Origin: Anaerolineae bacterium
GTDB lineage: Bacteria; Chloroflexota; Anaerolineae; B4-G1; SLSP01
DNA: 64,000 nucleotides
Reading direction: 5' to 3'
Assembly: GCA_034433375.1 (NCBI GenBank)
Contig: DAOUAQ010000116.1
Location: 16,442-80,441 of the forward strand
Shown here in pieces: positions 16,463 to 57,030 of the stretch (positions within the stretch are counted from its first letter, which is position 1; each line of letters opens with the position of its first letter). The notes below the pieces were generated by a model. The model made no database searches. It saw only the letters and a list, made by a program, of their open reading frames with translations, and had not been told where the DNA came from. Position numbers and translations under genes: made by a program.

Positions 16463-16478
16463 CAGGTGGGAGAGCGTT

Positions 16479-18218: not shown

Positions 18219-18220
18219 GT

Positions 18221-21626: not shown

Positions 21627-21704
21627 CCAATACCACAGGCAGCTTCGCGCCGCATGTGAGCCGTCAGCGGGCGAGGTGGCTGTACTATGTAAGGTGGGGA
21701 AGGA

Positions 21705-24419: not shown

Positions 24420-24428
24420 AGGGCCAAT

Positions 24429-28743: not shown

Positions 28744-28779
28744 TGAGAAGTTTGTGGAGATACAGCAAGGAGACCTCCG

Positions 28780-29139
28780 ATGCCCTATCAAATGCAGATG
28801 CGTGAAGACGGTATTTTGCAGATCAGGTTTATTGGTGTGTTGGAAAGCGCCGATTTACCACAATTCATCAGCGAATTCAATCGCTACCTGGAAGCTGCCA
28901 CCCCAGAAAAACCACTGCGTACCTTGTCCAAGGCAGATCAGCCCGGCATGAAGTACTCTCCGGCGGTGCGCAAAGCCTTTGCCGACATGAATTCTGATCC
29001 GCGTTTGGGAAAGTCCGCGACTATTGGCGTGGATCGGTATACGCGCGTGCTGGCAGGATTTGTGTTGAAAGCGACCGGACGCGAAAACATCCGTTTTTTT
29101 GACGCTGAAGAACTGGCGGTGGCTTGGTTGTTATCCTAG
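28780..29139 (+). CDS. Small SpoIIAA-like/STAS-like (DUF3478-type) protein, first of a tandem pair
   Basis: 119 aa. RBS 'AAGGAGA' lies upstream. The sequence is 'GILQIRFIGVLESADLPQFISEF...ATIGVDRYTRVLAGFVLKATGRENIRFFDAEELAVAWL'. The C-terminal '...RFF-aEE-A--WL' ending is typical of SpoIIAA-like family members as I recall them. This is a family-level guess. Confidence 0.5.
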   Translation: MPYQMQMREDGILQIRFIGVLESADLPQFISEFNRYLEAATPEKPLRTLSKADQPGMKYSPAVRKAFADMNSDPRLGKSATIGVDRYTRVLAGFVLKATGRENIRFFDAEELAVAWLLS

Positions 29140-29147
29140 GGGGGACT

Positions 29148-29504
29148 ATGGCGCACCAATTGGGAATGGGTAGTGATGGCATTCTGCGGCTGATGTTCAT
29201 CGGCGATACGGACAAACTGGGCGCTGAAGCCTTGATCGCGGATTTTGGGCCATATCTGGCGCACGCGACGGCGGAGAACCCTCTGTGCATCTTGTGGGAC
29301 GATACCCGTGGCGGCAAAGCCTCTTCAGAAGTGCGTAAATTCTATGCCGACCTCAACCGTGATCCCCGTATAGGAAAAGTCGCCATTTTTGGCGCGAAAA
29401 ACTATGGCCGGGTCTTGGGTGAGTTTATCCTGAAATTCACCGGGCGCGACAATATCCGCTTCTTTAACGCGCAGGAACAGGCGCTTAGTTGGCTAAAAGA
29501 ATGA
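29148..29504 (+). CDS. Small SpoIIAA-like/STAS-like protein, second of the tandem pair (paralog of 28780..29139)
   Basis: The ORF runs 29124..29504. The paralog-consistent start is ATG 29148 ('MAHQLGMGSDGILRLMFIGDTD'). The sequence continues '...VAIFGAKNYGRVLGEFILKFTGRDNIRFFNAQEQALSWL'. It is ~40% identical to the upstream gene. Confidence 0.5.
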   Translation: MAHQLGMGSDGILRLMFIGDTDKLGAEALIADFGPYLAHATAENPLCILWDDTRGGKASSEVRKFYADLNRDPRIGKVAIFGAKNYGRVLGEFILKFTGRDNIRFFNAQEQALSWLKE

Positions 29505-29544
29505 CGGGCGTGCTTTTTGCGGGTGCAGAAAAAAAGGACTCTCT

Positions 29545-31890
29545 ATGACAGAGATCACATTGGAAGAATATAAGCAACTGGTCGAAACACAGGGGCATCA
29601 ACTCCTCACCGGCGTGCGTTCTGCGGCGATGGGCGACATGGATGTGGCGTGGGAAGTCCCTGAAGGCGTGCCCATACTCACTGCCCTGGCCGTCGGGATC
29701 GGGATGCTCATTGACGACATCCGCGACATGCGCGCCGTGCAGGAGCAGGCGCGTATGGTGGAGAACCAGAGTCGCGCATTGTTAGCCGTCGTGCAATCCG
29801 CAGCCCTGGGCGACTTTGATGTGGTTGTCGAAGTGCCCGAAGGCGTTGAGGAATTGTCGGAATTGGCCGTGGGCATTGATATGATGCTCGACGACATCCG
29901 TGACATGCTCGAAGCGCAGGAGCGTGCGCGCGCCGAGATCGAAATCTCCAAACAGCAACTCGAGGCGGCATTGGAAGAGATGCGCGCTACCCAACGCCGC
30001 TATATCCAACAAGAGTGGGCAGGTTACGCGGCGGCGGAGTCGGGTTACGCTTACGTCAGAGGCGTAGAGGAATTGCAGCCGGTCACAGATGATGCTCAGG
30101 CGCTGCGGTCAACGGCGCTTACGGACGCAGTGGCCCAGCGCGCCACGGTCGTCACGGAAGATGTCGCCGAAGGGCAGACACTCGCGTTGCCCATCGCATG
30201 GGCCGGTGAAACCATCGGCGTGCTCGGCCTCACCCGTCCGGCCGCCCACCCGTGGGGTGCCGACGAAATTGCGGCGGTCGAAGAAATCGTCGAGCAAGCC
30301 GGCTGGGCCTTGGAAAACCAACGACTCTTCGATGAAACGCAGCGCGCCCGCGCCCTTCTGAGCAAACAAATCCGCGAATTGGACTGTCTCAACGACATTG
30401 GCCGCCGGATCGCCGAATTTCCGGCGATCCCTGACCTGTTGCAATGGACGGCAGAACGGCTTCCCGCAGCTATGCAATACGCGGATGTGTGCGTCACGGC
30501 CATTGAATATGCCGGACGGTTTTATGGCACCATTGAAGCCATTGACCAGGCGCGCCAGATGGTCAGCGGCCTCCGCCTCGGTGATGAGCAAGTCGGTCGT
30601 ATTGTCGTAGCATACACTGAGGAGCACACATTTCTCGACGGGGAGAGCGCCCTGTTGGGTGATGTGAGCCGGCGTCTTACCGGCTACATCGAGAACCGCC
30701 AACTCCTTGAGCAGGCCGAGACGCGCGCTGTGCAGGAGCAAGCGTTGCTTGAAATCGCCGGCAAAATCGGGACGAGTGAAGACATGGAGGGCTTATTAAC
30801 CGTTCTTCCTGAAATTATCCCGCCGCTGCGTCATCTGGCTCCGGTGGATTTGATGTCGGTAGCGACGTATACCCCCGGCGAATCATCGTTAACGGTCTTT
30901 GCCGTGGCGGTGGAAACCGATGTCGCGCACTTCAGCCCGGCGGGAACGCGCCTGCCATTGGAAGGTTCCGCGCCCGGCTGGGTTATCACGCACAAACGAC
31001 CCTGGCTAGAAGCAGACATGCGGCGTAGGGTAACCTTCCCTGAGGATGCAGACTTGATAGCGGAAGGGGTCGTCTCGCGGCTTATTGTGCCCCTGCAATT
31101 CGGCGATCAACTGGTTGGTACGCTGAATATGGCGAGCCGGCAGCCGCGCGCATTCACTCAGGAGCGCATGGCGCTGTTAGGACAGGTCGCCAACCAATTG
31201 GCCCAAGCTATGGAACGCGCCCGTTTGCTGCAAAACACCCGCGCGGCGCTGGCGGCCGAAGCTGAAACGCGCCGCAGTTACGAGCGTCGGGAGTGGCAAA
31301 CATACCTGCAAGAGAACCGCAGACTTCGTCGGAATGCTTTCGTCTATGATGCCGCGACGAAATCAGGGGGGGGCCAGGGCCGGGTGGTTGTCCAGCCTGA
31401 TTTCTGGCGCCCGGAGATGCTGAAATCTTTACGCGAGTCCACCTTGGCGACGACTCACGATGTGGCAGACGATGCCGCGCCGACACACGGACAGCAGGCG
31501 GCCGCCACACCTCCAGCTGGAAAACGGATCGGAATGGCCGTTCCCATCGAGATGCGTGGTCAGGTGATCGGGGTGCTGGGCGTCGAAGACCCCGAAGGCA
31601 TGTGGCGCAGTTCTGCGGATCAGTTGGCCTTGATCCAATCTGTTGCGCAGCAGTTAGGCCAGGCGTTGGAAAGCGCGCGCTTGCTCGAGGCCACCCAACG
31701 CCGCGCCGCCCGCGAACAGCGCGCGCGCGAAATCACCGACACCATTCGCGCCGCGTCCACCATCGAGGATGCCGTGAAACGCGCCGTGCAGGAAATCGCG
31801 CGCGTTTTGAACGCCTCCGAAATGGTCGCCCGTCTGGGACCGGAAAACCTGTTGACGCCGCGTGAGGAGGGAGAGGCTAATGAACAATAG
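29545..31890 (+). CDS. Soluble tandem HAMP repeats, GAF domains and the family tail
   Basis: 781 aa. The N-terminus carries two ~50-aa repeats: 'AAMGDMDVAWEVPEGVPILTALAVGIGMLIDDIRDMRAVQEQAR' and 'AALGDFDVVVEVPEGVEELSELAVGIDMMLDDIRDMLEAQERAR'. GAF-like segments follow ('TLALPIAWAGETIGVLGLTRPAAHPWGADEIAAVEEIVEQAGWALENQRLFDETQRA'). The tail is 'QRRAAREQRAREITDTIRAASTIEDAVKRAVQEIARVLNASEMVARL'. Confidence 0.65.
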   Translation: MTEITLEEYKQLVETQGHQLLTGVRSAAMGDMDVAWEVPEGVPILTALAVGIGMLIDDIRDMRAVQEQARMVENQSRALLAVVQSAALGDFDVVVEVPEGVEELSELAVGIDMMLDDIRDMLEAQERARAEIEISKQQLEAALEEMRATQRRYIQQEWAGYAAAESGYAYVRGVEELQPVTDDAQALRSTALTDAVAQRATVVTEDVAEGQTLALPIAWAGETIGVLGLTRPAAHPWGADEIAAVEEIVEQAGWALENQRLFDETQRARALLSKQIRELDCLNDIGRRIAEFPAIPDLLQWTAERLPAAMQYADVCVTAIEYAGRFYGTIEAIDQARQMVSGLRLGDEQVGRIVVAYTEEHTFLDGESALLGDVSRRLTGYIENRQLLEQAETRAVQEQALLEIAGKIGTSEDMEGLLTVLPEIIPPLRHLAPVDLMSVATYTPGESSLTVFAVAVETDVAHFSPAGTRLPLEGSAPGWVITHKRPWLEADMRRRVTFPEDADLIAEGVVSRLIVPLQFGDQLVGTLNMASRQPRAFTQERMALLGQVANQLAQAMERARLLQNTRAALAAEAETRRSYERREWQTYLQENRRLRRNAFVYDAATKSGGGQGRVVVQPDFWRPEMLKSLRESTLATTHDVADDAAPTHGQQAAATPPAGKRIGMAVPIEMRGQVIGVLGVEDPEGMWRSSADQLALIQSVAQQLGQALESARLLEATQRRAAREQRAREITDTIRAASTIEDAVKRAVQEIARVLNASEMVARLGPENLLTPREEGEANEQ

Positions 31891-33283
31891 GGTACGAGAA
31901 TCAACCACCAATGTGCTCACGGGTAGCGTGTTGCTTGAAGATCAGTCGCGGCGCACTCGTCTTTTGCGCACTGTGGCATGGGTTGTTTTGCTGGCGTGTT
32001 CTGTGGCGCTGCTTGGTTATCTCATTGCTTTGTTTTCCATTCCCCACCTGCCCATTTCCGCGCTTGTTGCTGATGTGCTGGCGATACTGTCTATGCTCGC
32101 CGTGCTTGCCTTGCTCGCGCGCGGACACTTCGAGCGGGCGCTGCCACTCGCCATCGTGAGTTTGACCGTGCTTCTGTTTGTCGCCATGTATTTTCTCAAC
32201 GGGACGCGGGGCCCGGCGCTTTTACTGTCGCCGCTGATTATGCTCATTGCCGGTATCGTTGGTGAGCGACGCTATGCTCAACCTACCACCATCGTTCACG
32301 TCCTCGTGTATGTGATCTTTGTAATCCTGGAGGCTCTCGGCGTACTCACGCCTTATCAGATGTCGCCACAGAGTTCACGATTAGTCTGGATTGGGGTTTT
32401 CATTCTGACCGCTGCCATAATGGTCATGATTAACCGGCAATTTATCGCTTATCTGGCATTGGCCCTCTCTGCATCGCTGAAGCGCGAGGAATCATTGGCG
32501 GAAATGAGCCGGCGCGCGCAAGCGTTGGCTGACGCCGAGCGTGTAGCGCAAACGCAAGCGCAAGAAAACGCGCGGCAGCTTCAAGAAGTGGCGCAAGAAT
32601 ACGCCGCTTTCCTGGAGCGCATCGCCACCGGTGACTATAGTGCGTCGCTGAACCTGGGTTCGTTAGCCGAACGGCCCAACTTGCCGCAAGCGTTAATTAG
32701 TTTGGGAGAATACATCAATACGACGGTTGCCAGTCTGGTATCGGCGTTGGATGAAGCGCGGAGTGCCCAGCAGACCTACATGCGCCAATCCTGGCAGAGT
32801 TTGATGGAAACCGGGCGCGCACCCGGCGGGTATCGTTATCACGTGGATGAGGAGACTGAAACGTCGCGCCTGGAGATCGCCGAAAACGCCTGGCTGCCGC
32901 CGATGACCCAGGCGGTGCAATCCAAGCAGATCGCAGTCGGCAAGGAGGAGTTGGCGCTCCCCATCGCTTCAGGCACGCGGGCGCAACTCATCGGTGCGTT
33001 AGGGGTGCGCCGTACCCGGCAGGAAGAATGGAGCGAGGACGAACTGGCGCTGGTGACAACGGTGACTGACCAACTGGCGCAAACTCTGGAGAACCTGCGC
33101 CTGCTCGACGAGACAACGCGCCGCGCGGCGCGTGAACAGATGGCCGGTGAAATTACCGGCCACATCCGCGAAGCGGTGGAGATCGAAGAAGTTTTGGAGC
33201 GCGCGTTGAGCGAACTTGGACGCGCTCTGGCTGTCGAGCGCGGCGCGGTATATCTGACGCTGCAAGAACAGGGAAAAGTCTGA
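31880..33283 (+). CDS. Membrane protein (type B): TM segments, HAMP-like/coiled-coil region, short GAF-like domain and the family tail; paralog of 10858..12243
   Basis: The ORF runs 31862..33283. The likely start is ATG 31880 ('MNNRVRES') with 'GAGGAGGGAGAGG' upstream. It overlaps the previous gene by 11 nt. Shared motif 'LGEYINTTVASLVSALDEARSAQQTY' is present. The tail is 'TRRAAREQMAGEITGHIREAVEIEEVLERALSELGRALAVERGAVYL'. Confidence 0.65.
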   Translation: MNNRVRESTTNVLTGSVLLEDQSRRTRLLRTVAWVVLLACSVALLGYLIALFSIPHLPISALVADVLAILSMLAVLALLARGHFERALPLAIVSLTVLLFVAMYFLNGTRGPALLLSPLIMLIAGIVGERRYAQPTTIVHVLVYVIFVILEALGVLTPYQMSPQSSRLVWIGVFILTAAIMVMINRQFIAYLALALSASLKREESLAEMSRRAQALADAERVAQTQAQENARQLQEVAQEYAAFLERIATGDYSASLNLGSLAERPNLPQALISLGEYINTTVASLVSALDEARSAQQTYMRQSWQSLMETGRAPGGYRYHVDEETETSRLEIAENAWLPPMTQAVQSKQIAVGKEELALPIASGTRAQLIGALGVRRTRQEEWSEDELALVTTVTDQLAQTLENLRLLDETTRRAAREQMAGEITGHIREAVEIEEVLERALSELGRALAVERGAVYLTLQEQGKV

Positions 33284-33338
33284 GCTAAGCGACAATTTCG
33301 ATCTTGGCGCTAATAATGAGTGTGATAAGGATGCAACT

Positions 33339-35123
33339 ATGGTGAAATCGAAGACTGAACGACAGGCGGCTATAGCGGCAGCGTGGGAACGCTTTTTGAC
33401 CGTCAACGTCCCTGATGAAGAAGAGGCGCGACTGGGACGGCTGTTCTGCGTCATGATGGTACTGACGTTCGCGCTGTCGCTGTCACTCGTGTTGATCTTG
33501 GTGATTGCCACCTTGCGCGATCTGTTTCCTAGCCGGTTGATGGGCTGGTCGGCAACAGCCTTCCCGATGGTCTTCATCCCCCTGTCCATCTTTAGTTTTG
33601 CCCGCGCCAAACAAGGCTACGTCTCTTCCGTGGCCCAGTCATTTGTGTGGATCAACTTCATCGGCATAGCCCTGGCTGCGTTGATCTTTGATGGGATGAA
33701 CTCCCCAGGGTGGTTGCTCTTCTTCTGGCCGGTAACGTTAGCCGGGATGTTTTTAAGGCCGGTGAGTGGGCTACGCATGGCGTTCGGCGTGTTGATCTTT
33801 TACGGCGTGCTCGCGTTCCTGTGGACTACCGTCTTCAAGATCACGGTGCCCAGCTTTTCCTTTGATCTTTTTTACTTTCTGACCCGCGCCTTTGCCTTGT
33901 TGATGCTGGTAGCGACGGGCGGCTTTGTCAACTACCTGAACCTTCATAGTTCCTACCAAACCTTGAACCGTTCACGGCTTGTCAGCCAGGATTTACGCGG
34001 GACACAGCGCATGTTGGAGCGCCGGGTTGCCGAGCGCACCGACGAACTGGCGAAACGCGCCGGACAGTTTCGGACGATTGCTGAACTTAACCACGCCATC
34101 GCGTCCATTTCGGACATGCAATTACTGCTCGATACTGCCGTGAGTTTGATTGCCCAACGCTTGGGGTACGATCATGTGGGAATTTTCTTCGTTGATCCGC
34201 ACGGCGAGTGGGCTGTGCTGCGCGCCGCCTCCTCGGTGGGCGGACAGCGTATGCTGGCGCGCGGTCATCGGTTGCGCGTAGGCCGCCAGGGTATTGTGGG
34301 CTACGTCGCCGAGACGGGCCTGCCCCGGCTGGCCTTTAGCGTGGGCGAGGACGCCGTCTGGTTCAACAACCCCGATCTGCCGGATACCCAGTCAGAGGTG
34401 AGCTTGCCGTTGATTGCCCGTGGGCAGACGGTCCTCGGCGTGCTGGATATCCAGACGCACGTCAAAGCTGCCTTCACAGAGGAAGACGTGACCGTGCTGC
34501 GCATCCTGGCCGATGGGATCGCCGTTGCCGTGGCGAACTCGCTCTCTCTGGAAGAGACGACCCATGCGCTGGCGCGTCTGGAGCGTTATCAAGAACAGGA
34601 TGCCCTGCGCGCATGGCGTCAGGCATTGGCCCGGCGGCAGATGCGCGTAGGGTATGGCCTCGAATCTGGCTTTGTTTATCCGGCGGATGTGGAAGCCGCG
34701 TCGGAGATTGAGGCTGGTGAGTTGAGCGAAGTGACGACCCGCCTGACCGATGATGGGCGGCATCTCTTGCTGGCGCCAATTCGCGTCCAGAACCGCAATG
34801 TAGGCGTACTTTCCTTTGAGAAAACAGCGCCGTGGGCCGAGGACCAGCTTCAACTGGCGCAGTTCGTGGTTGAGCAATTGGACCTGGCGCTCGATAACGC
34901 GCGTCTGCTGGAAGAGACGCGGCTGCGCGCGAATCAAGAGCGCGCCCGGAGCGACATCGTGGGCCGCATCCGCGCGATGACCAGCACCGATGCGATTTTG
35001 CGGAACGCCGCGCGTGAGTTGGGTCTGGCGCTGCAAGTCGAACGCAGCCGCATCCAACTGCTGCCGCCGGGCGAGGGACGCCTGGGAAGTCCAGAGACGC
35101 CGCTGGCGCAGGGAGAGGCATAG
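33339..35123 (+). CDS. Membrane-anchored GAF sensor (type A) with the family tail
   Basis: 594 aa. ~6 TM segments are present. GAF motif 'LGYDHVGIFFVDPHGEWAVLRAASSVGGQRMLARGHRLRVGRQGIVGYVAETG...NPDLPDTQSEVSLPLIARGQTVLGVLDIQT' is present. The tail is 'RLRANQERARSDIVGRIRAMTSTDAILRNAARELGLALQVERSRIQL'. Confidence 0.7.
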   Translation: MVKSKTERQAAIAAAWERFLTVNVPDEEEARLGRLFCVMMVLTFALSLSLVLILVIATLRDLFPSRLMGWSATAFPMVFIPLSIFSFARAKQGYVSSVAQSFVWINFIGIALAALIFDGMNSPGWLLFFWPVTLAGMFLRPVSGLRMAFGVLIFYGVLAFLWTTVFKITVPSFSFDLFYFLTRAFALLMLVATGGFVNYLNLHSSYQTLNRSRLVSQDLRGTQRMLERRVAERTDELAKRAGQFRTIAELNHAIASISDMQLLLDTAVSLIAQRLGYDHVGIFFVDPHGEWAVLRAASSVGGQRMLARGHRLRVGRQGIVGYVAETGLPRLAFSVGEDAVWFNNPDLPDTQSEVSLPLIARGQTVLGVLDIQTHVKAAFTEEDVTVLRILADGIAVAVANSLSLEETTHALARLERYQEQDALRAWRQALARRQMRVGYGLESGFVYPADVEAASEIEAGELSEVTTRLTDDGRHLLLAPIRVQNRNVGVLSFEKTAPWAEDQLQLAQFVVEQLDLALDNARLLEETRLRANQERARSDIVGRIRAMTSTDAILRNAARELGLALQVERSRIQLLPPGEGRLGSPETPLAQGEA

Positions 35124-35128
35124 ACGAA

Positions 35129-36217
35129 TTGCGTATGATGAAACGTTGGCGTTTGTGGGGATTGATTGTCCTGTTGTCCTGCGTGGCGGCCTGCCAGCCG
35201 GCGCAGAATGTCGCCTGGCCTACGCCAGCGCCGATCGCGCCCGCGCGCGCTAAGCTGCGGGTGTTCTGGGTCAACAGCTACACCGAGGACGACTTCTGGT
35301 CGCAGCAGGTGCGCATCGGGGTCCTGGAGACGTTAGCGCGTCGGGGATATACGAGTGTTGACGGTACACTGGAAATGGAAACCTTCCACATGGGGATGCG
35401 GCAGGTCGCAGTGATTGAGGACGTAAGGCCGGCAGCGCTCCTGGCCGTTGAGCGGCTCGCAGATTTTCAGCCGGACATCGTCATTGTTTCTGGCGACGAA
35501 GCGACACGCACCATCATTCCGTTGTATTTTGATCCCACCTTGCCTTTCGTTTTCTGTGGTGTGAACAGTGACCTGCGCCAGTACGGGTTGGATCTACTGA
35601 ACGTCACCGGTGTTTTGGAAGCCCTGCATCCCGTACAAACTGTAGCGATGGCCTATGCTTTTGTCGAAGACGCGCAGCAGTATATGGTCCTCGGCGACGG
35701 CTCCGTGTCGGGCAAGGCCCGCGCCCTGGCGGCTTATGCCGCTCTGCAAAACAGTGCGTACGGCACGCCGGCGCCGCTGTTCCGCTTGGCGGGAACCTGG
35801 TCTCGTTGGCAAACGACGGTGCTGGAAGATGCGCGCGCGGCGGATTTCATCTTGCTGGCGAGCCATCAGGGTATCGTTGATGACAGTGGAAATCCCATTG
35901 ATGAGCAAGAGGTTATCGCGTGGATGCTGGAAAACTCTCCCGTGCCGGTTTTTGCTCTATCTAACGTTGCGATCATCAACGGCGCAGTGGGTGGCCTGGT
36001 CTCGTATGGGTATGAAGAAGGCGTTTCGGTCGGAGAAATCGTGGTGCGGCTGGCTGCCGGCGAGTCGCCGGCCGATATCGAAATTCGCGGCCCGGCGCGC
36101 AATCTGCTCGCGGTCAATCTGGCGGCCTCACGCCGCTGGAATTTGCGCATACCCGTTATGTTCCCGATCGCGGCACGCATCTACGGAACCTTGCCCGTTG
36201 CAGAAGGAGGTCATTAA
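35129..36217 (+). CDS. Stand-alone COG2984/ABC_sub_bind-type periplasmic binding lipoprotein (paralog of the N-terminal domain of 14204..16462)
   Basis: 362 aa. A lipoprotein-like signal is present ('MRMMKRWRLWGLIVLLSCVAAC'). The body is 'LRVFWVNSYTEDDFWSQQVRIGVLETL...PDIVIVSGDEATRTIIPLYFDPTLPFVFCGVN'. Its stop overlaps the ATG of the next gene (TAATG). Confidence 0.6.
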   Translation: MRMMKRWRLWGLIVLLSCVAACQPAQNVAWPTPAPIAPARAKLRVFWVNSYTEDDFWSQQVRIGVLETLARRGYTSVDGTLEMETFHMGMRQVAVIEDVRPAALLAVERLADFQPDIVIVSGDEATRTIIPLYFDPTLPFVFCGVNSDLRQYGLDLLNVTGVLEALHPVQTVAMAYAFVEDAQQYMVLGDGSVSGKARALAAYAALQNSAYGTPAPLFRLAGTWSRWQTTVLEDARAADFILLASHQGIVDDSGNPIDEQEVIAWMLENSPVPVFALSNVAIINGAVGGLVSYGYEEGVSVGEIVVRLAAGESPADIEIRGPARNLLAVNLAASRRWNLRIPVMFPIAARIYGTLPVAEGGH

Positions 36218-39200
36218 TGTCACAGAAGGGCATGAGCCTGCGCTGGCGCATGATTCTGATCATTGCCGGAATCCCCATGTTACTGCTGGTCCCGGTCTTC
36301 ATCTACTTGAGCAACCAGTACCGGAACGCCTATCGGCAGGCCTACTGGGGCAAAGCCGAGTTAATCACCATCCAACTGCAACAAACGCTCGAAACCGTCG
36401 CGCCCTACGTCGAGACGTTCCAGGATGCGCCAGGGCTGGCGACGCTTTTGCAAAAAGTGGTGGAGGGCAGCACAGAGTTCGACTTCGTCGCTTTGGTTGA
36501 CAGCGCGGGTAAAGCCATTGAACACTCTACCCCCGGACTCAAAAATGTGACGGTCGCGGAGTTGGCCGGCCTGGACAGCGCCAAACCGATTGAGCTGCGT
36601 GAATTATCGTACTTTGGTTCGGTCTATCTCATCTCGCGCGCGGTCCCTATGCCCGGCGACGCGAAACAACGCCTGTATATCGTCGTAGGAGAGCGGGCGG
36701 AGGTCGTTGATCCTCCGATGATGGCATTGCTGATCGTTGGTATACTCAGCGGGGTGGGGTTGATCGCGTTGCTGTACTTTTCCACGCAGGGGCTTGTGCT
36801 GCGACCGCTCACCCGTCTGGCAGAAGGGGCGCGAATTATCGGCGGCGGCGACCTGGCGCACACGATCCCGGTTGACAGGGAAGACGAAATCGGCGTGGTT
36901 GCGCAGTCGTTCAATGGGATGGCAGCTCGTCTGCGCGAAATGGTTTCGGGGCTGGAACAACGCATTACCGAGCGCACGGCGGCGCTGGAGCGCAAATCAC
37001 TGCAACTGGAAACCATCAGCCTGGTGAGTAAAGAAGCGGCCCAGGTGCGTAATGTCATTTTGCTCCTGGAAACAACCGTCCAGGCCGTATCGGATAAATT
37101 CGGTTTCTACCATGTGGGGATTTTCATCCTGGATGACGCCAGGGTGTGGGCGATACTGCGCGCGGCCTCTTCGGAGGGCGGTCAGCGGATGTTGGCGCGC
37201 GGGCACCGTCTGCGGGTTGGACAGACGGGCATCGTGGGTCTCGTGGCGAGCACCGGTAAACCGCGCATCGTTTTCAACGTCGGCGAGGATGCGGCCTGGT
37301 TCAATAACCCCGATCTGCCCGACACGCGCTCGGAAATGGCGTTGCCGCTGCTGGTGGAAAGTGGGGTAATCGGCATCCTGGACGTGCAAAGCGACGTGCC
37401 CAAAGCCTTCACCGACGAGGATATCAGCACCCTGCAATTGTTGGCCGACCAGTTAGCGGTGGCGCTCAACAACGCGCGCGCGCTTGAGCAGATGGAAAGC
37501 GCACTGGCTGAAGTTCACAATCTTCAGGTCGAGTACAGCCGTCAGGGGTGGGCGCGTATCGCGGCGCAGACGCGCCCTCTGGCCTATGAATATGACCGTG
37601 TGGACGTGAACCCTGTCCCGCCGCTTCCCGTGCCCCCGGATCTGCGCGAAGGGCGGGTGCAGCGCGCTCAATTGATGGATGGCGGCGTGCCGGTCGTCAT
37701 GGAAACCTTGCGGGCCGGCGACCGCGTGTTGGGCTACCTGGGTCTCGCCGATTCGCAGCGCACCTGGTCCCCAGAAGAACTGTCACTGGTCGAAAGCGTC
37801 AGCGAACAGGTTGCCCTCGCCCTGGAAAACGCCCGGCTCTTCGAGGAGTCGCAGCAGAGCCAACGCCAACAGACCCTTATCAGTAACGTCTTGCAGGTAT
37901 CCTCCAACCCCGACCTGAGCTTTGAGGACGTATTGGCTGAAATCGCCCGAATTCTAGCGCAGGCGTTGGGGATGGCCGTGGGGATTTACACTTTCCCGAC
38001 GCCCGACTTCCCGCGCGTACAGCCCCATGCTGTTCTCGATCCCTTCGGGGAGCGTCTACCATTCCCCACCGAACCAATCGCGTTGAGCGATGAACATCTC
38101 ACCTTCTTCCGGGGGCTGCGCCGTGCAGAATTAGGCCCGCTGCTGCCGCTGCTCGGTGGCGTCGAACTGGCGCCGGAGAACCGCGACCGGCTGGCGGCTT
38201 ACGAACTCAGGCGCGTATTCTACGTTCCCCTGGGCAGCAGCGGTTCGCAGCATGGGTTTATCGTCATGCTCCAATCTCGAGACAACGCGCTGCCCCTCGA
38301 CCCCGAAACGCGGGACCTCATTCAACGCCTGGCGAACCAGATTGAAGTGGTTTTGGATAACCTGACGTTGACGGAGGAGACCCAGCAGCGTTCCGAAGAA
38401 CTGCGTTCACTTTACAGCATCTCGTTGGTCTTGAGCGAACTGCTCGAACCGGCGGATGTGTTGGCTGCCATCGTGTCCCAAGGGGAAACACTGCTCAATG
38501 CAGATAGCAGCGGATTCTTTGAGTATGATGTTGAAACCGACGGGTTGATTTTAGCGTTGGGGCCTCCGGATGGTTCACTGGGACAGGTCGGACTGCGTCT
38601 ACGACGGGGTGAGGGATTGGCGGGCGAAGCCCTGGTCAAACAACAAACGCTCTTTGTCGAGGATTACGAGGTGTGGGACAGAAGTGTGCCCGCACTCCGT
38701 AGCTCGCGCTTTCATGCGATCATGGCTGTGCCTATGATCGGGCGGTTTGGTCCGCAGGGTGTGTTGGTGCTGCGCGCAGAGGAGATCGCTGCCTTTGGTG
38801 ATCGAGAAGTACGCCTGGCTAACCTCTTCGCCCAGCAAGCTGCTGCCGCGCTCGATAACGCGCGGTTGAACAAAGACGCGCAACGCCGCGCCGAGGAATT
38901 CTCGCTGCTCTCCCAGGCCGGCATTGACTTGCTGCCGATCCGGGATATGCAGCAGCTTCTCGCCCGCGCTGCCGATTGGACGCGGCGCATCTTCGACGTT
39001 CCGCGCGCCGTCATCTTCTTGCGCGACGCCGACGCCGGCATCTTCTTGTCGGGTCACAGTGTGGATGCGGCAGCGCACTTCTTGACGGAGCGCGATGACG
39101 ATCAGCCTAGCCCCGGTGGTTTGACAGCGTCCATTATGGAAACGCGCAAGGGTATCCTCATCCTGGATACCCGCAAAGATGACCGCGCAAGCAGCCAACG

Positions 39201-40698
39201 TCTGGCCGAGATCGGCTTGCTATCACGGATGGGCGTGCCATTGCGTGTCGGCGACGAAGTGTTGGGCGCGGTGCTCATCTCCGGGATTGAAGCCAGCCAG
39301 TTCAACGAACGTGAACTGAACCTGTTGGAATTCCTGGCGACGCAGGTCTCCTCGGCGATCCAGAATGCGCTGCAATTTGGTCGCACCGAAGCCGCGTTGG
39401 GTGTGGTGCGGCGGCAAGCGCGCTATCAGGCCAATGTCTCGCAGGCGGCGGCTTTGCTCACCGAGCGGGGCACCGAGGCGGTATCCGATGTGCTGCGTTT
39501 GCTCGGTGAGGCGTCCAACGCTCACGGCGTGCTCTATCTGGAGTACCACGCGGCCGAAGACGCTGCCGTTACGGATGACGGGACGGAGGACGTTGTGGGC
39601 GACTCGCATTGGCAGTCGCGCGCTCTGTGGATGGCGGCAGAGCTTCCCGCCGGCCAGTTCGATGCTGCGCTGTTGCAGCACATCGCGCTGGAACGGATGC
39701 AACCCTGGGCCGATCAGCTTATCGGCAGACCGTACCTGGCATTCCAACCCGATACCCTTCCCGCTGGGGAACGCGAATTGATGCGGGCGCTCGGTTTTAA
39801 CACGCTGTTACTGTTGACCGTGCGGGGCGAAGCCCTCTATCCCAACATCATCCTGCTAGGCCGCGCCGACGCCGAAAATGCCTGGTTGGAGGAGGAAATT
39901 GTGGCTATGCAGACTGCGGCTGCCACCCTTTCCAACACCATCGCGCGCGAGCGGGTCTTCCAGGAAGTGCAGGCGTCGCGTACCGAGACCGAGGCGCTGT
40001 ATCGCGGAAGCGCCGAGTTGAATCTCGCGCAGACCTACGATGGCATCCTGAACGTGCTGCGCACTCATACCATCCTGGGGCAGGGCGCGCATCACATGAC
40101 GCTACAACTCTTCGACCGCCCCTGGACGGACGAGAACGAGCCGCAATATGCCGAAGTTGTAGCGCACTGGACGACGACAAACACGAACGCGCTGCGCCAG
40201 CGTTACTGGGTCGCCGACTTCCCCACATCGCCGGAACTGATCCGCAACACCGGGGTGATTCTGCTCGATGACCTTGAACACAACCCGCTGCTGTCGCGTC
40301 GGAACCGCGCCTTGTTCTCCCGTGTCTACGGCGCGAAGACGGTCGTCTTGGTGCCGCTGATTGCCAGCGGTCAGCGGATCGGCTTCTTGCACGCGATGTA
40401 CCCCCAGGCCGTGACGTTCTCCGAGCAGGAGCGCCGCCGTTTGGAGAGCTTGACGCAGCAGGCCGCCATCGCCGCGCAGAACCGCCTGCAACTGCTGACC
40501 ATTGAAGCGCGCGTCAATCGGGAACGGATGATCCGTGAAATCACCGAGCGCATCCAGGCCGCGCCGGACGTGCAAGGGGTGCTGCAAGCCGCCGTGCGCG
40601 AATTGGGGCGGGCTTTCGGAACCTCGCGTAACAGAATACAATTCCGACCGCCCGGTGAATCTACAGATATCAAGACCAACGGAGAAAAAGAGCCTTAA
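36217..40698 (+). CDS. Membrane sensor: 2 TM with a periplasmic loop, HAMP, ~7 GAF domains and the family tail
   Basis: 1493 aa. The first TM is 'LIIAGIPMLLLVPVFIY'. A periplasmic region of ~150 aa follows, then a second TM. HAMP is 'LTRLAEGARIIGGGDLAHTIPVDREDEIGVVAQSFNGMAARLRE'. Multiple GAFs follow ('FGFYHVGIFILDDARVWAILRAASSEGGQRMLARGHRLRVGQTGIVGLVASTG...NPDLPDTRSEMALPLLVESGVIGILDVQS' and others). The tail is 'RVNRERMIREITERIQAAPDVQGVLQAAVRELGRAFGTSRNRIQF'. Confidence 0.7.
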   Translation: MSQKGMSLRWRMILIIAGIPMLLLVPVFIYLSNQYRNAYRQAYWGKAELITIQLQQTLETVAPYVETFQDAPGLATLLQKVVEGSTEFDFVALVDSAGKAIEHSTPGLKNVTVAELAGLDSAKPIELRELSYFGSVYLISRAVPMPGDAKQRLYIVVGERAEVVDPPMMALLIVGILSGVGLIALLYFSTQGLVLRPLTRLAEGARIIGGGDLAHTIPVDREDEIGVVAQSFNGMAARLREMVSGLEQRITERTAALERKSLQLETISLVSKEAAQVRNVILLLETTVQAVSDKFGFYHVGIFILDDARVWAILRAASSEGGQRMLARGHRLRVGQTGIVGLVASTGKPRIVFNVGEDAAWFNNPDLPDTRSEMALPLLVESGVIGILDVQSDVPKAFTDEDISTLQLLADQLAVALNNARALEQMESALAEVHNLQVEYSRQGWARIAAQTRPLAYEYDRVDVNPVPPLPVPPDLREGRVQRAQLMDGGVPVVMETLRAGDRVLGYLGLADSQRTWSPEELSLVESVSEQVALALENARLFEESQQSQRQQTLISNVLQVSSNPDLSFEDVLAEIARILAQALGMAVGIYTFPTPDFPRVQPHAVLDPFGERLPFPTEPIALSDEHLTFFRGLRRAELGPLLPLLGGVELAPENRDRLAAYELRRVFYVPLGSSGSQHGFIVMLQSRDNALPLDPETRDLIQRLANQIEVVLDNLTLTEETQQRSEELRSLYSISLVLSELLEPADVLAAIVSQGETLLNADSSGFFEYDVETDGLILALGPPDGSLGQVGLRLRRGEGLAGEALVKQQTLFVEDYEVWDRSVPALRSSRFHAIMAVPMIGRFGPQGVLVLRAEEIAAFGDREVRLANLFAQQAAAALDNARLNKDAQRRAEEFSLLSQAGIDLLPIRDMQQLLARAADWTRRIFDVPRAVIFLRDADAGIFLSGHSVDAAAHFLTERDDDQPSPGGLTASIMETRKGILILDTRKDDRASSQRLAEIGLLSRMGVPLRVGDEVLGAVLISGIEASQFNERELNLLEFLATQVSSAIQNALQFGRTEAALGVVRRQARYQANVSQAAALLTERGTEAVSDVLRLLGEASNAHGVLYLEYHAAEDAAVTDDGTEDVVGDSHWQSRALWMAAELPAGQFDAALLQHIALERMQPWADQLIGRPYLAFQPDTLPAGERELMRALGFNTLLLLTVRGEALYPNIILLGRADAENAWLEEEIVAMQTAAATLSNTIARERVFQEVQASRTETEALYRGSAELNLAQTYDGILNVLRTHTILGQGAHHMTLQLFDRPWTDENEPQYAEVVAHWTTTNTNALRQRYWVADFPTSPELIRNTGVILLDDLEHNPLLSRRNRALFSRVYGAKTVVLVPLIASGQRIGFLHAMYPQAVTFSEQERRRLESLTQQAAIAAQNRLQLLTIEARVNRERMIREITERIQAAPDVQGVLQAAVRELGRAFGTSRNRIQFRPPGESTDIKTNGEKEP

Positions 40699-40796
40699 GG
40701 TGGAGGACCGGAAACCGGCTGGACAGCGCGTCGCAGTGGTTCTCTGGCAGGATTTGAGTGTATTCGATCCGCTGGTTATGGGAAAGGTTATGTAAC

Positions 40797-43700
40797 ATGA
40801 CGATGATGGACACAGAAAAAAGTAAGGACCACGGGACTCAGGGGGTGGGGGCCTTGCGCCAACAGATGACCGCGCTATCACGCAAGGATGGGGGGATTTT
40901 CCTCCAATCTATGTTGGACGCCATCCCTAACCCGATTTTCTACAAGGATATGGCGGGCGTTTATCGCGCCTGCAATCGCGCCTTTGCCGAGGACGTTCTC
41001 GGCGTGCCGGGTGAACGTATCATCGGGCGGACTGTCTATGACCTGGCGGAATCTATGCCTCAAGCCCTGGTGGAAACCGATCATCCCAAAGACCTGTTGC
41101 TGCTGCGCGCGGCTGGCTCTGACGTTTACGAGACGGCGTTATGTTACGCGGACGGCATTTTCCACGACGTCGTCATCCACAAAACCACCCTGGCCGCGTC
41201 AGATGGTCGCATTGACGGTGTGGTGAGTGTGCTGCTCGATGTCACCGACTTCAACAAGTCGGAAGAAAAGAGCACGATGCTGCTTGAGTTGACCCAGGCC
41301 GCCATCGCCGAAACCGAGGTGCTCTATCACCTGAGCAGTTCCCTCATCGCTTTTGACGATCTGACGGGCCTTTTGCGGGCCGTGGTGGATGGCGTAGCGG
41401 ATATGCTGCTGGCGAACCAGGTGATATTGACGACGGTGGACCTTGAGCAGCGCAAAGTCATCCACTTCGTCAAGGGAGGCGTCGGCGTTGCCGGCGTTGC
41501 GCCGGAGATGTCCTTCGATGAACTGTGGAATGGTTTGAGCGGCGCGGCGTTGCGCAGCCTGAAGCCGATCCTCTCTACCAAGAGCACCCCCGACCCGCGC
41601 GAAAGCCCTGAAATCCAACGGCAGCTTGGCGAAGCGAGCATCGGCTCCGTGGTGGTCGTTCCCTTGCGGTACCAGGAGCGGACGTTGGGCACGTTAGCGG
41701 CTGTCAATCGTCTGGAAGACCCGGATTTCACGAAGAAGGATGTGAGCTTGATGGTGGCGATGGCGAACCAGGTCGCGGCTGCCGTCGAAAGCGGACATCT
41801 CTTCGCCAAATTGCAGCATACGGCGACAACTATGAGCACCGCTGCGGAAATCTCACAGGCGTCCTCGTCAATTTTGGATCTGGACGAATTGCTGCCGCAA
41901 GCCGTGGATCTCATCCGCCAACGCTTTAACCTGTACTACGCGGGCATTTTCCTGGTGGATGACAGCGGCGAGTGGGCCGTCCTTAGCGCGGGAACCGGCG
42001 CGGCGGGACGCGCCATGTTGGCTGAAGAGTACCGTGTGAAGGTAGGCGGCGAGTCGTTGATCGGCGCTTGTGTGGCGACCGCCTCGCCCTGCATGGCTCA
42101 GGATACGACATCAGCGCAGCGACGCATGGCGCTTGTGTATTTGCCGCACACACAGTCGGAGTTGGCGCTGCCGATGATTAGCCGTGACGCGACGATCGGC
42201 GCGATGACCGTGCAATCGGTGCTGGCAGGCGCTTTCACCGCCGAGGACGTCACGGCGCTGCAAATCATGGCGAACCAATTGGCGAACGCCATCCAGAACA
42301 TCCGGCTGCTGGAGAAAGTACGCACTTCCCTGGCGGAGACCGAGGCGCTCTATCAAACAGCGCGCGCGATCAGCGGCGCGCGCTCCTTCGAGGACATCCT
42401 TGAGGGGCTTTTTGACACAATCACGTTTATGCCTCTGAGCGAGGCGGTCTTGCACGTCATTGTCGCGCGCGATCCCCTCAAGGTGAACTCGTACACGACG
42501 ACCCGCGTCGGCGGTGAGCGACAGACGCACGTGACTTACACGACGTCCGTTGACGATGTCGCGCCACTGCTGGATGATCCGCAGCAGTTCGTCTTCTATG
42601 GCGACCCAAAAGATGAAGACGCCGCCATACCTGAACCGGCGCGCGCGCGCATGGCGCAGATGGGCTATCGTTCGACGCTGACCACCGGCTTGACGGCGCA
42701 CGGCGAACTGGTGGGGTTCCTCACGTTTAGCAGCGCCGCGTCGCAGCACATCATCGCGGCGCGCGCGGTGCAGGGCGCAGTGCGCGCTTTGGCCGATCAG
42801 ATCGGGGTTGTGCTGGATAACTTCCTGCTTGGCGAGCAGACACGCCTGCGCGCTGAACAACTCGAAACATTAAGCGTGATCGAATCCGCGCTTTCGGAGA
42901 CCAACACCGAGGCCGAGATACTGGACGTGTTTGTCCTGGCTGTGCGCGCTACTGCCACCCTCACGGCCTGGCTGGTGTACACCGACTCCGCCGCCGACGG
43001 CGTGGTGACGACGCAGATTGTGGCTTCCTGGCATAATGGGGCCATTCAGCCCGCTGACCCGCTGCTCAACCGCTCGCTTTCCCCGAACACTTTCCCTATG
43101 TCGCGTCTGTGGATGGGCGATCTGGATCAAATTTCTTACACCTATGATCTACACCAGGACAGCCCGATTGACGCCAGGGCGCGTGAATGGGCCATTGAGC
43201 ATGGCTTTGTGTCGGTGATGGTGCTGCCGATGTTGAGCGGCGGACACTTGCAAGGGGTCATCGTGCTCAACTGGGCTGAACCCTACGTTTTGTCTAGCAC
43301 CGAACAATTCCTCTTGCGGCGTCTGGTGCGCCCGACTGTGGCGTTGCTCTCGCGGCGACGCGCTTACCTTGCCGAGGAGGCTGCGCGCGCCGAAAATGAG
43401 CGCCGCGCGATGCAGTTCCAGACCGCGGCAGAAGTGGCCCACGCCGCCTCCTCCATCATTGACCTGGATGAATTGTTGCCTCATGCCGTGAATTTGCTCC
43501 GTGAGCGTTTCGACCTCTACTACGTTGGTGTTTTTCTGGTTGATGAAACCAGAGAATGGGTCGCGTTGCGCGCTGGTACGGGCGAGGCTGGCCGCATTAT
43601 GTTGGAACGCCAGCATGGTTTTACCGTCGGCGGCGGTTCGATGATCGGGCGGTGTGTGGCTGAGGCCACGCCGCAGATCCCCGAAAGCGTAGATACTGCG

Positions 43701-46700
43701 GTGCGTTACGTCAACCCGCTCTTGCCCAACACGACGGCGGAAATCGCTTTGCCGCTGGTCAGCCGCAACCAGATGATCGGGGCCATGTCAATCCAGTCCA
43801 GCAAAGTGCGCGCCTTCTCCGAGACCGACATCACCATCTTGCAGACAGTGGCTGACCAGTTAGCCAACGCGATTCAGAACGCCCGGCTGTTCGATCAACT
43901 GAATACCTCGCTGACCGAAAGCGAAATGCAGACAGAAGTGAGTCTGGCGATCAACGAAGCGCAATCGGTTGAAGAGATCGTGCGCGCGGCGGCGCAGGTA
44001 GGTGAGTTTATCGGCATGGCCGGCGTCTCCTTGCGCCATTTCACGCGCTGGGATGAGGCCGGGCGGCCTGTGAGCCAGGATGTTTACAGTTTGTTGACCC
44101 GTGAAGCCGGCGAAGAATTCCGCGTTATGGAGAACATCGTGATTAACCAGGAGCTTTTAGTCTGGATCCTCGCCGACACACGCCGGATGCATGTCAGCAG
44201 AGATTTGGTCACCGACATGGCCTTGCCTGAGGCTATTCGCGCCAGCTTGCTTGCGCAGGGCTATAACAGTATGATCTGCACGCCGCTCGGCACGCGGAAC
44301 CGTTTGTTGGGATTCCTGGTCCTGTTTGATACACGTCCGGTGGAGGAGTTCCCAGCCCGCTATATCCAGGTTTTTGTGCGGACGCTCATTGATCAGGTTT
44401 CGACGGGATTGGATCGCTACACGCTGCTCCGCGAAAGCGAACGGCGCGCCGCGCGAATGGAGACGGCTTCTGGAATCGCCCGCCATGCCGCGTCAATTCT
44501 GGATCAAGAGACTTTGCTCTCCGAAGTTGCCGGACTGATTCGTGAGCGTTTCAACTTATATCACGTGGGCATGTACATGGTGGACGATTCCGGACAGTGG
44601 GCGGTCTTGCACGCTGCTTCCGGCGACATTGGCCGCGCGCTGCTGGCGCAAGGCCAGCGCTTGCAGGTAGGCGCGGGTTCACTGGTGGGCGCGTGTGTGT
44701 CCGCCGCTGCCCCATACAGCGTCTTGAATCTGGACGAGGCATCACGCCGTCTCTATGCCGACGCCGTCACCGCTACCGGCTCGGCCATCGTGTTGCCGCT
44801 GATCAGCCAGAACGTCGTCATCGGTGCGGTGGCTATGCATTCGCAGGAAGCGGCCGCTTATTCTAAAGAGGACATCACCATCTTCCAGACGATGGCCGAC
44901 CAACTGGCGACGGCTATCGGCAACGCGCGCCTCTTTGCGCAGTCACAGACCAGCCTTGAAGAGTTGCAGCGGGTGCAGCAACGCTATGCCGTGGAAATGT
45001 GGGATGGCTACGTCGAGCAGCGGGACGTTTTCGGCTATACCTACGATCTGAACGAAGTCGCTCCATTGCCTGTTGAGCAATCCAGTGCCCCGGCTGATCT
45101 TTGGGGCGGCAAGCTCTTCATGCGCAGCGGTGAAGAGGATGGCGATGGCGCGCTGTTGGTCGCGCCTTTCGATGTCAGGAGCGAGCCGGTGGGCTTCCTG
45201 AGTTTTGAGGAACCCGGCGCGTCGCGGACGTGGACCGAAGACAATGTCGCCGTCATCGAGGCCGTCCGCGAGCAGCTTGCCCTGGCCCTGGAGAACCGTT
45301 TGTTGATTGACCAATCCCAAAATGCACTGCGTGAAGCCCGGCAGCGTGAGCGCGAAGTTCGCTTCCTCCAGGGGGTCGCCGCCTTCCTCAATGCGACGGA
45401 GAGCATCGTGGCCTCTCAAAACGAATTGCGGGAGCACCTGCAGGCATTCATCCCGGTGGACTCGCTTTCTATCACCGGGTATGACGCCAATCGTATGTTG
45501 CACTTTTTGGGGGAGCAGACCGGCAACGTGCTCAACCTGGAGAATTGGGCGGGGGTCGAATTGGGAAAAGGAACGGGATACACACTGGCGGCTGAGACGG
45601 GCGAACCTTTGCTGCACGATGACATCCGCCAGACCCCGCGTTTCTGGGAAGATGAGCACTTGATTGTGGCGGGAATGGTCGCGCGCGCTGTCATGCCCTT
45701 GCGGTTAGGCGCGCGCATCCTGGGGACGTTGAACCTGGAGAGCCGCCAACCTGGCACATTCTCACGGCCTGAGCTGATGCCCATCCTCTCGCAGGTGACG
45801 GCGCAAGTCGCCTCGGCGATGGAGCGCGCCAACCTGCTGCAACGCGCCCAAGAGAGCGCCGGCGAGTCGCGCACCCTCTACGAAGCCACCAGCGCGCTGG
45901 CCGAAGCTACCAGCTACGAGACCGTGCTGCGCGCCATCGTCGGACACACCATTCTGTCGGAGTATGCCTGGGCCGAGATTGCGATGTTCATTGTTGATCC
46001 CGAAACCGGCGCAGAACAGAGTTTGTTGGAAGTCGTCAGTTCGTGGAGCAGTCAGTCCTCTCTTGCGCCCCTGGAAGTCGGGCGGCGGATGTCGGTCGCG
46101 GAGTTCCCGGCGCTGCAACGCCTCGCGCCGGGGCAACAACTGTACATCTGCGAGGACATCAATATGGCGCTGGACATGGATCCGTCGGTCCGCAACTTCT
46201 ATCTTGAGCAGGGCGTGCAGGCATTTGTGATGGCGCGCCTTTCTGCAGTCGGCGTCACCAGCGGCGGCGGAATCGGCGTGCTCCAGATTCGATTCTCGGA
46301 GCCATACCACCCATCGGAACAGGACGTGCGTCTCTACAACAACATCGCCGATCAGGCCGCTGTCGTGCTCTCTAACCAGAAGCTGCTGCGGCTGTCTGAG
46401 GCGCGCACCGAGCAGTTGACCGCCGCCGTGGACTTCGCGAACCTCGCCACGGCCCTCTCGGAGCGCGAAGATTTGCTCAAGCGATCGGTAGATTTCTTTA
46501 AGACGCGCTTTGGTTTCTACTATGTGGGCATTTCGATGCTGGACGAGCAAGGGGAGTGGGCCGTCTTGCAGGCCGGCACCGGCGATGTCGCGGAGACGCT
46601 GCTGCGTATGGGGACGCGTGTGCGTGTTAATGCCAGCTCGATGGTCGGTTGGAGCATCGTCAACGACCGACCACGCATCGCCCAGGATGTAACGCGCGAC

Positions 46701-50989: not shown

Positions 50990-51056
50990 ACCAACAGGTG
51001 TTCTGCTAAATCAAAAACAAATTTTAAGGTTGATGGAGAAATTTGTTGCGGAAAAT

Positions 51057-51085
51057 TTGCACCTTCTGTCGAACGTGTTTATAAT
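51057..51085 (+). promoter_or_regulatory. Candidate promoter for the PolX gene (TTGCAC-N17-TATAAT)
   Basis: TTGCAC lies at 51057-51062 and TATAAT at 51080-51085, in an AT-rich intergenic region ~50 nt upstream of ATG 51138. Confidence 0.35.
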
Positions 51086-51137
51086 AAAAGTGCGACACTC
51101 TAGTATGCGCTGTGACTGACACGAAAGGCAGGCGACC

Positions 51138-52913: not shown

Positions 52914-52916
52914 AAG

Positions 52917-53873: not shown

Positions 53874-53880
53874 GCATAAA

Positions 53881-53929
53881 ACGTAAAGCATAAAACGCGA
53901 GGTGTACCCTTACGTTTTACGCTTTACGT
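53881..53929. repeat. Imperfect 17-bp-arm inverted repeat with 15-nt loop, built from AAAACGTAAAG units
   Basis: 'acgtaaagcataaaacg' (53881-53897) pairs with 'cgttttacgctttacgt' (53913-53929), with 1 mismatch. It lies in the ROK-VanW intergenic region. Confidence 0.5.
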
Positions 53930-53943
53930 CATAGGAAACGATA

Positions 53944-55749: not shown

Positions 55750-55791
55750 CCGGGCTGTTAGTGAATGGTAAATTTGTGAAATGTGATGCGG

Positions 55792-55855
55792 AAAACGTAA
55801 AAAACCGCTTACGTTTTATGACAAAAACACCCTCGCCTGTGTAAGGCGAGGGTGT
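55792..55855. terminator. Two adjacent hairpins between convergent genes; the distal one is a terminator for the minus-strand gene (stem plus TTTTTG on the minus strand)
   Basis: Hairpin 1 pairs 'aaaacgtaa' (55792-55800) with 'ttacgtttt' (55809-55817). Hairpin 2 pairs 'acaccctcgcc' (55827-55837) with 'ggcgagggtgt' (55845-55855) around loop 'tgtgtaa'. On the minus strand hairpin 2 is followed by 'ttttgtcat'. Confidence 0.55.
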
Positions 55856-55880
55856 TAATTGATGAAGTTGTGTTCTGGGA

Positions 55881-56987: not shown

Positions 56988-57030
56988 AGGTCACTCCCTT
57001 CAGGTTAAGATGAGGTCATCTCCAATCAAG

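Follow-up and report, generated by a model that had tools for sequence, protein, structure and literature searches.

LuxP/LuxQ, TorT/TorS, HptA/HptS and AioX/AioS are binding-protein-dependent receptors in which the binding-protein gene lies beside the receptor gene, and AioX/AioS and TlpB are established binding-protein-stimulated receptors with sCache-like domains (PMC8050422). The same review counts 13 binding-protein families as stimulating receptors, and its text does not mention PF04392 by accession or family name (PMC8050422). About ten binding-protein/sensor-kinase pairs have been characterised, and binding-protein Pfam domains often act as fused sensor domains (PMC9602780). Here we describe a candidate pair of this kind in a stretch of 64,000 nucleotides from an Anaerolineae bacterium (contig DAOUAQ010000116.1, hereafter the window), where the gene of a free PF04392-type lipoprotein directly precedes that of a membrane GAF receptor. 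The partner assignment of the lipoprotein to this adjacent sensor is strongly supported by comparative sequence evidence. We consider it likely that the lipoprotein is a membrane-tethered ligand-binding protein serving signalling rather than transport, which docks on the Cache-like loop of the receptor and drives its second transmembrane segment (TM2) and HAMP domain. The elements of the pair, and a fused paralogue encoded in the same window, are the following.

35135..36217, + strand: free extracytoplasmic solute-binding lipoprotein of the PF04392/COG2984 type, 360 amino acids, with a signal peptide and lipobox Cys20.
36199..36219, + strand: translational-coupling junction, with the Shine-Dalgarno sequence GAAGGAGGT in the last codons of the binding-protein gene (E-G-G), followed by TAATG.
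36217..40698, + strand: presumed receptor, 1493 amino acids, with a first transmembrane segment (TM1), Cache-like loop, TM2, HAMP, five GAF stretches and a terminal GAF-like module (from Pfam and hydropathy).
36319..36711, + strand: extracytoplasmic loop of the receptor and proposed docking surface, a putative small Cache/PDC-like domain assigned via orthologues.
14204..16462, + strand: fused paralogue, 752 amino acids, with a signal/transmembrane segment (residues 5-27), PF04392 domain (~35-345), transmembrane segment (350-377), signalling helix, GAF (432-568) and terminal GAF-like module.

At the level of gene order, the pairing was conserved in every complete Chloroflexota locus compared. 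Related loci were found with an alignment of 10 closer sequences, and 10 kb were visible on each side. In 20 of the 20 Chloroflexota loci with both genes complete, the lipoprotein orthologue lay directly upstream of an orthologue of the receptor with the same order of transmembrane segment, loop, transmembrane segment, HAMP and GAF. The receptor orthologues were colinear over their first 250 residues (E values 1e-55 to 1e-148), and the paired genes overlapped by 1 or 4 bases in most of these loci. Lipoprotein identity reached 89% in the closest genome (locus L010), and the pairing was kept at much lower values. At 34% identity (L007), the lipoprotein gene precedes that of a 483-residue sCache_3_2-HAMP-GAF protein; at 25% (L008), it precedes the gene of an sCache_3_2-HAMP-GAF-GAF-histidine kinase (HisKA/HATPase). 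Because the lipoprotein is coupled to the adjacent sensor gene in every related Chloroflexota genome checked, it is most likely the ligand-capturing partner of the receptor. An earlier note on this DNA had proposed a free binding protein as partner of the adjacent GAF sensor, a proposal that this coupled synteny supports.

Two further gene pairs were observed. In a Rhodospirillaceae metagenome-assembled genome (MAG; alphaproteobacterial, L036 2780..6056), the gene of a free PF04392 protein, 26% identical to that of the window, overlaps by 14 bases the gene of a CHASE-PAS-HisKA-HATPase kinase; free PF04392/sensor pairing may extend beyond Chloroflexota and beyond Cache receptors. In a related array (L006 4847..8238), a different free binding protein (401 amino acids, ANF_receptor/Peripla_BP_6) is encoded 14 bases upstream of a dCache_1-HAMP-GAF gene, and its predicted domains make it a second pair of binding protein plus Cache receptor in a like array. 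The neighbours of the proteobacterial matches L032-L041 were unrelated by sequence inspection (M14-peptidase-like, Rep-like helicase and histidinol-phosphate-aminotransferase-like), and these loci are uninformative on partners.

At the junction itself, the lipoprotein stop overlaps the ATG of 36217..40698 in a TAATG at 36215-36219, as the earlier note had read it. The GAAGGAGGT motif lies 6 bases 5' of the receptor ATG, within the end of the lipoprotein gene. The junction is TAATG or TGATG in most Chloroflexota loci, with GGAGG in the final lipoprotein codons. The C-terminal (E/Q)GG of the lipoprotein is conserved because the GGAGG Shine-Dalgarno of the receptor gene lies in those codons. Junctions like that of the window were seen in L001, L003, L005, L010-L019, L023, L027, L029 and L030. 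For the extended C-terminal (E/Q)GG(R/H/Q), the conservation of the protein apparently reflects a constraint on the nucleotides. Scans for promoters and terminators near the pair gave background-level signals.

For the lipoprotein, the open reading frame (35129..36217, + strand, 362 residues) opens at TTG 35129. We prefer ATG 35135 as the likely start (MMKRWRLW..., MMKRWRLWGLIVLLSCVAAC...), because the orthologues begin at this position. The N-terminal signal peptide ends in a VAAC lipobox, whose Cys20 was invariant in 10 orthologues down to 38% identity. Against Pfam PF04392 (ABC_sub_bind) the window protein scored 23.8 bits, just below the cut-off of 25.9; most of its orthologues have a precomputed PF04392 match. 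An AlphaFold2 model built on 38 sequences reached a predicted local distance difference test score (pLDDT) of 89.3 and a predicted template-modelling score (pTM) of 0.82. The top five Foldseek hits of this model were all PF04392 structures (3LFT, 3LKV and 6HNI/6HNJ). The best matches were 3LFT (an L-Trp complex), 3LKV and CD0873 of C. difficile, with template-modelling scores of 0.76-0.81 (target-normalised) and E values of ~1e-13; sugar-binding and LacI-type class I folds followed in the list, with LuxP at rank 45. The model thus predicts a class I two-lobe binding-protein fold, closest to the solved PF04392 members, with which identity is 15-19% (E 0.016 to 3LKV by sequence). All 47 of 47 database matches to the free protein, orthologues included, were free proteins of 275-393 amino acids, and the named ones came from Anaerolineae/Chloroflexota MAGs. 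An exact-sequence look-up of the window protein returned no record.

The free protein and the fused domain have in common the residues NSY, D.A, CG.N, TG..E and D188. From general knowledge of class I binding proteins rather than from placement on the model, we take these residues to sit in strand-end loops lining the cleft between the lobes. This assumption bears on whether the lipoprotein could be an accessory or scaffold subunit that has no small ligand, or could act alone, for example as an adhesin like CD0873, with the coupling reflecting co-expression only. Every gene in the 49-kb array of GAF genes to which the pair belongs is closely packed, so adjacency alone is not specific, and an adhesive role is reported in the PDB title of CD0873. 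However, the order of binding protein followed by Cache-HAMP receptor is kept outside the large array, in the small clusters that hold the L007 and L008 pairs, and the presumed cleft-lining residues are conserved in both subfamilies. We regard this alternative as very improbable, and a ligand-binding partner of the receptor as the better description of the lipoprotein.

A role in transport has more in its favour. PF04392 is named for ABC (ATP-binding cassette) substrate-binding proteins, the closest structures are 3LFT, 3LKV and CD0873, and the three ligand-bound solved members of this family bind aromatic amino acids, namely L-Trp, L-Tyr and L-Phe (PMC10443332). The lipoprotein could then be primarily the binding component of a distant ABC importer, its position in a sensor array being regulatory or incidental, or it could have both transport and signalling roles. 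ChvE, BctC and MBP serve both. Our survey covered loci rather than whole genomes, which leaves room for a distant transporter. Yet no ABC permease or ATPase gene was present in the 64-kb window, or within 10 kb of the orthologues in more than 20 related loci, and the coupling to the sensor gene is kept down to 25-34% identity. Moreover, the window protein falls below the Pfam cut-off and, by the E value to 3LKV, far from the transport-type members. The earlier note had named an ABC transporter as the alternative partner, and no locus had transporter genes adjacent. We judge a primary transport role unlikely, and return to the receptor as the partner.

The receptor, which the earlier note described as a TM-HAMP-multiGAF protein, has two transmembrane segments, a loop, HAMP and five GAF stretches (TM1 6-34, loop ~35-165 of ~130 residues, TM2 162-195, HAMP 193-241); the note's term 'periplasmic' is here corrected to 'extracytoplasmic'. 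In Pfam searches of 36217..40698 only HAMP and GAF were found, with no output domain: no kinase, MCP, GGDEF, cyclase or Ser/Thr kinase. The loop of the window is colinear in the alignment with those of L007 and L008. Of 18 orthologous loops, four match sCache_3_2 (PF17203; best 4e-13) and three match dCache_1. By transitivity, the receptor loop would be a Cache/PDC-like domain of small size and divergent sequence. When a profile of the loop was searched against PDB sequences, the matches were marginal (3LEQ, E 0.028; dCache chemoreceptors, E ~1.7). A homologue search with receptor residues 1-250 returned no proteins, though orthologues occur in the related loci.

The two extracytoplasmic parts diverge in parallel. 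Across 20 orthologous pairs, identity to the window averaged 52% for the mature lipoprotein and 54% for the loop (r 0.96), and the first cytoplasmic GAF of the receptor kept 72%. The parallel divergence is compatible with co-evolution of two extracytoplasmic parts that would be in contact.

In the mechanism that we propose, lipoprotein and receptor would be made together via the overlapping stop and start and the internal Shine-Dalgarno sequence. The ligand-loaded lipoprotein would dock on the small Cache-like extracytoplasmic domain of 36217..40698, and the conformational change would pass through TM2 to HAMP, the signalling helix and the chain of GAF domains. In the fused protein 14204..16462, a PF04392 domain of a different subfamily would connect directly to a like signalling helix and first GAF. 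The output would possibly be the terminal hybrid kinase of the array.

Several points weigh against this proposal. The window loop itself gave nothing significant against Pfam, its Cache assignment being transitive, via the orthologues. Shared phylogeny, together with the general tendency of external domains to drift faster, would lead to the same lipoprotein/loop correlation. The receptor has no recognisable output domain at which the pathway would end. A distant transporter, and hence a dual role, is possible beyond the 10 kb seen on each side of the loci. The profile of the window loop aligned to the dCache of P0243, a secreted relative described below, with a non-significant E value of 0.13 (hhalign). 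Finally, the lipoprotein-receptor contact, the ligand and the output are steps that we infer. The homology, fold, lipobox, topology, coupling and conserved synteny were established directly by the comparisons reported here, and with both sides considered we still hold the docking mechanism to be likely.

The comparison with the fused paralogue 14204..16462 was the starting point of the earlier note, which held the lipoprotein to be paralogous to its N-terminal domain and saw in the two a fission/fusion pair. The homology is clear. BLASTP of 35129..36214 against 14204..16459 gave 66.2 bits (E 6e-16, 25% identity over 325 residues) along the whole binding domain, phmmer of the free against the fused domain gave E 3.5e-18, and the shared motif that the note had quoted (NSY ... 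D.A ... P.VFCG.N) is visible in the alignment. The fused protein scores 35.9 bits against PF04392 (cut-off 25.9). A family profile run against the six-frame open reading frames of the window found exactly two domains, the free and the fused one, and nothing else. The cytoplasmic parts are also related. Over the signalling helix and first GAF, identity between the fused and the split protein is 44% (E 2e-58), which means that each binding domain feeds into a cytoplasmic module of one and the same type.

Within the family, the two binding domains have different affiliations. In many phyla, sensor domains joined to HisKA/HisKA_2/HisKA_3 kinases, PAS, GGDEF, STAS and GAF share 40-55% identity with the fused binding domain, and to judge from these identities 14204..16462 is an ordinary member of a widespread fused sensor-domain subfamily. 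The free and fused window domains score 48-52 bits to each other, and each has hundreds of much closer relatives. For free-clade matches, the median score is 534 bits against the free protein and 48 against the fused domain; for fused-type matches, it is 301 bits against the fused domain and 34 against the free protein. In a HMMER scan of 1.84 billion representatives, 3024 proteins matched the free protein; among the matches listed, at least 150 cluster representatives scored about 88 bits or more to it (weakest 88.6), and the fused paralogue scored 52. Neither the 47 database matches nor the related loci included a fused orthologue of the free protein. The scores place the free and fused domains in separate subfamilies, one apparently always free and the other fused to signalling modules.

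A true fission/fusion pair would mean that the lipoprotein and the downstream sensor descend from a fused protein of binding domain, transmembrane segment and GAF like 14204..16462, or the reverse, with the fused protein as the direct cis-equivalent. Both parts do have homologues in the fused protein, as in a Rosetta-stone comparison, where separate proteins are homologous to adjacent parts of a composite (here the binding domain, and the signalling helix with GAF1). Split or membrane-anchored states also occur within the fused-type subfamily. However, the split and fused forms are not the close relatives that such a comparison calls for, at 48-52 bits against within-clade medians of 534 and 301. 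The score distributions point to a free clade far from the fused clade, with the free proteins basal, and the fused paralogue, at 52 bits, ranks below the 150 listed representatives. The two architectures are not colinear, since TM1, the Cache-like loop and HAMP are present in the split receptor and absent from the fused protein, and a simple break of a fused architecture would not yield them. The fused version, called the cis-equivalent in the earlier note, is not supported as such in the strict sense. The note also asked whether orthologous loci elsewhere are fused or split, and all 20 complete loci and all 47 matches were split or free. Of the fission/fusion claim, the homology at the family level stands, and a pair in the evolutionary sense is not supported. 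We find a single fission/fusion event highly unlikely, and the free/split and fused proteins are best seen, on present alignments, as functional analogues and distant paralogues rather than as halves of one event. In-situ fission by a frameshift was also considered and rejected, as every orthologue retains the two-gene state and the receptor possesses a TM1 and a loop of its own.

In the wider PF04392 family, several other arrangements were observed. In P0094, the gene of a fused-type binding domain is separated by 10 bases from a PAS-PAS-SpoIIE gene downstream, and P0055 consists of the binding domain and a C-terminal transmembrane segment only. P0234 and P0243, with 32-34% identity to the free protein, are secreted single chains that combine a signal peptide, the binding domain and dCache domains, and no transmembrane helix separates the binding domain from the Cache part. 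Because the Cache of P0243 is not detectably homologous to the window loop, this protein supports an association of binding protein and Cache only at the superfamily level. Metagenomic relatives (P0195 and P0198, ~650 amino acids; P0249-P0302, ~850-920 amino acids) include secreted proteins with two PF04392 domains in tandem and others in which such a tandem is fused to a transmembrane segment and GGDEF. In the tandem GGDEF proteins, one PF04392 domain scores 198-269 bits to the window fused domain, and the best scores to the free protein are 47-66 bits. Judging by these domain arrangements, fused and split states appear common in the family.

The pair lies within a long array of GAF genes, whose parts are as follows.

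55..49454, + strand: array comprising 17 output-less GAF proteins and the gene of the free binding protein, ending in a hybrid kinase; ~49 kb, uninterrupted on one strand.
55..40698, + strand: the 17 output-less GAF proteins, including the receptor 36217..40698.
828..3704 and 6567..10886, + strand: Peripla_BP_3 input proteins, with LacI-type Peripla_BP_3/Peripla_BP_1 fused to GAF (PAS-GAF at 6567).
Starts 3701 and 21705, + strand: dCache_1-HAMP input proteins.
Start 16308, + strand: MASE11 input protein.
Start 26182, + strand: PAS input protein.
40758..49454, + strand: hybrid kinase closing the array, 2898 amino acids, with PAS, 8 GAF stretches, HisKA, HATPase_c and 2 REC domains.

Further inputs of the array are PF04392 and several multi-transmembrane proteins, and the order of the array is also kept in related Anaerolineae MAGs. 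All 17 of the 17 array proteins share a C-terminal module (last ~190 codons, e.g. 15890..16459 and 40126..40695), in which a long helix leads to a small beta-sheet domain and a 46-residue helix (NARLxEETQRRAARE), with a short helix and a tail after them. Its AlphaFold2 model had a pLDDT of 87.6 and a pTM of only 0.60, and the best structural match, the GAF of PDE5A, was marginal (E 7e-4, template-modelling score 0.48, query-normalised). The last ~45 residues of the array proteins resemble the opening helices and strand of another GAF and then stop. From this model, the module is possibly a GAF, permuted or truncated, that serves in docking.

The lipoprotein/receptor pair could then be one input of a multi-input assembly, in which the shared module would let the 17 sensors bind one another or the 2898-aa kinase, and many cues from outside and inside the cell would converge on one phosphorelay. 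We offer this only tentatively and think it rather doubtful; convergence of the array on the terminal hybrid kinase is put forward as a hypothesis. Our literature search found no publications on this GAF array.

Downstream of the array, the following genes were identified.

Within 49892..63163, - strand: PHP-domain protein.
Start 51138: PolX-type polymerase.
Start 52917: ROK kinase.
Start 53944: VanW/PG_binding_4 protein.
57178, - strand: GH94 phosphorylase.
Start 60474: Wzy_C ligase-like protein.
61742..63163: dnaN.

The genes at 49892..63163 are of housekeeping type and unrelated to the array. The presence of dnaN hints that a replication origin may be nearby.

Overall, the locus adds a candidate binding-protein/receptor pair from PF04392, a family not listed in that role, in a phylum that has received little study. 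Translational coupling conserved in more than 20 genomes provides unusually clean comparative evidence, and it gives a concrete partner candidate for the class of receptors with HAMP, multiple GAF and no output domain. It also illustrates that a 'fused versus split' inference can give the right partner assignment while the evolutionary event that it implies is wrong.

Among PF04392 proteins, the window lipoprotein shares its predicted fold and its lipoprotein or secreted location with 3LFT, 3LKV and CD0873. It differs from them in being 15-19% identical and below the Pfam cut-off, with no adjacent permease or ATPase gene. The fused paralogue 14204..16462 resembles the transmembrane sensors with fused PF04392, with 40-55% identity in the sensor domain and the same topology of signal/transmembrane segment, binding domain and transmembrane segment. 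Unlike the fused-PF04392 kinases, GGDEF and STAS sensors, its cytoplasmic part is GAF plus the GAF-like module, with no enzymatic output. The free protein 35135..36217 is not in that fused subfamily (median 34 bits).

Compared with LuxP/LuxQ, TorT/TorS, HptA/HptS and AioX/AioS, the candidate pair of the window likewise has a free two-lobe binding protein encoded beside a two-transmembrane receptor and not beside a transporter. An export signal, a free binding protein, conserved adjacency and an extracytoplasmic domain between two transmembrane segments were all found here. As in the LuxP/LuxQ-type receptors, the extracytoplasmic domain is putatively alpha/beta (Cache/PAS-like) and, as in AioS and TlpB, a single Cache-like domain was assigned, in our case via orthologues. 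Unlike the LuxPQ/TorTS/AioXS type, the binding protein belongs to PF04392. The receptor also departs from that type in having HAMP and five GAF stretches with no output domain, and the pair is embedded in a 17-protein array. The receptor class itself is established; what is new here is the binding-protein family and the unusual output-less receptor. Thus, the pair fits a known signalling arrangement, here with a family of binding proteins for which this role has yet to be described.

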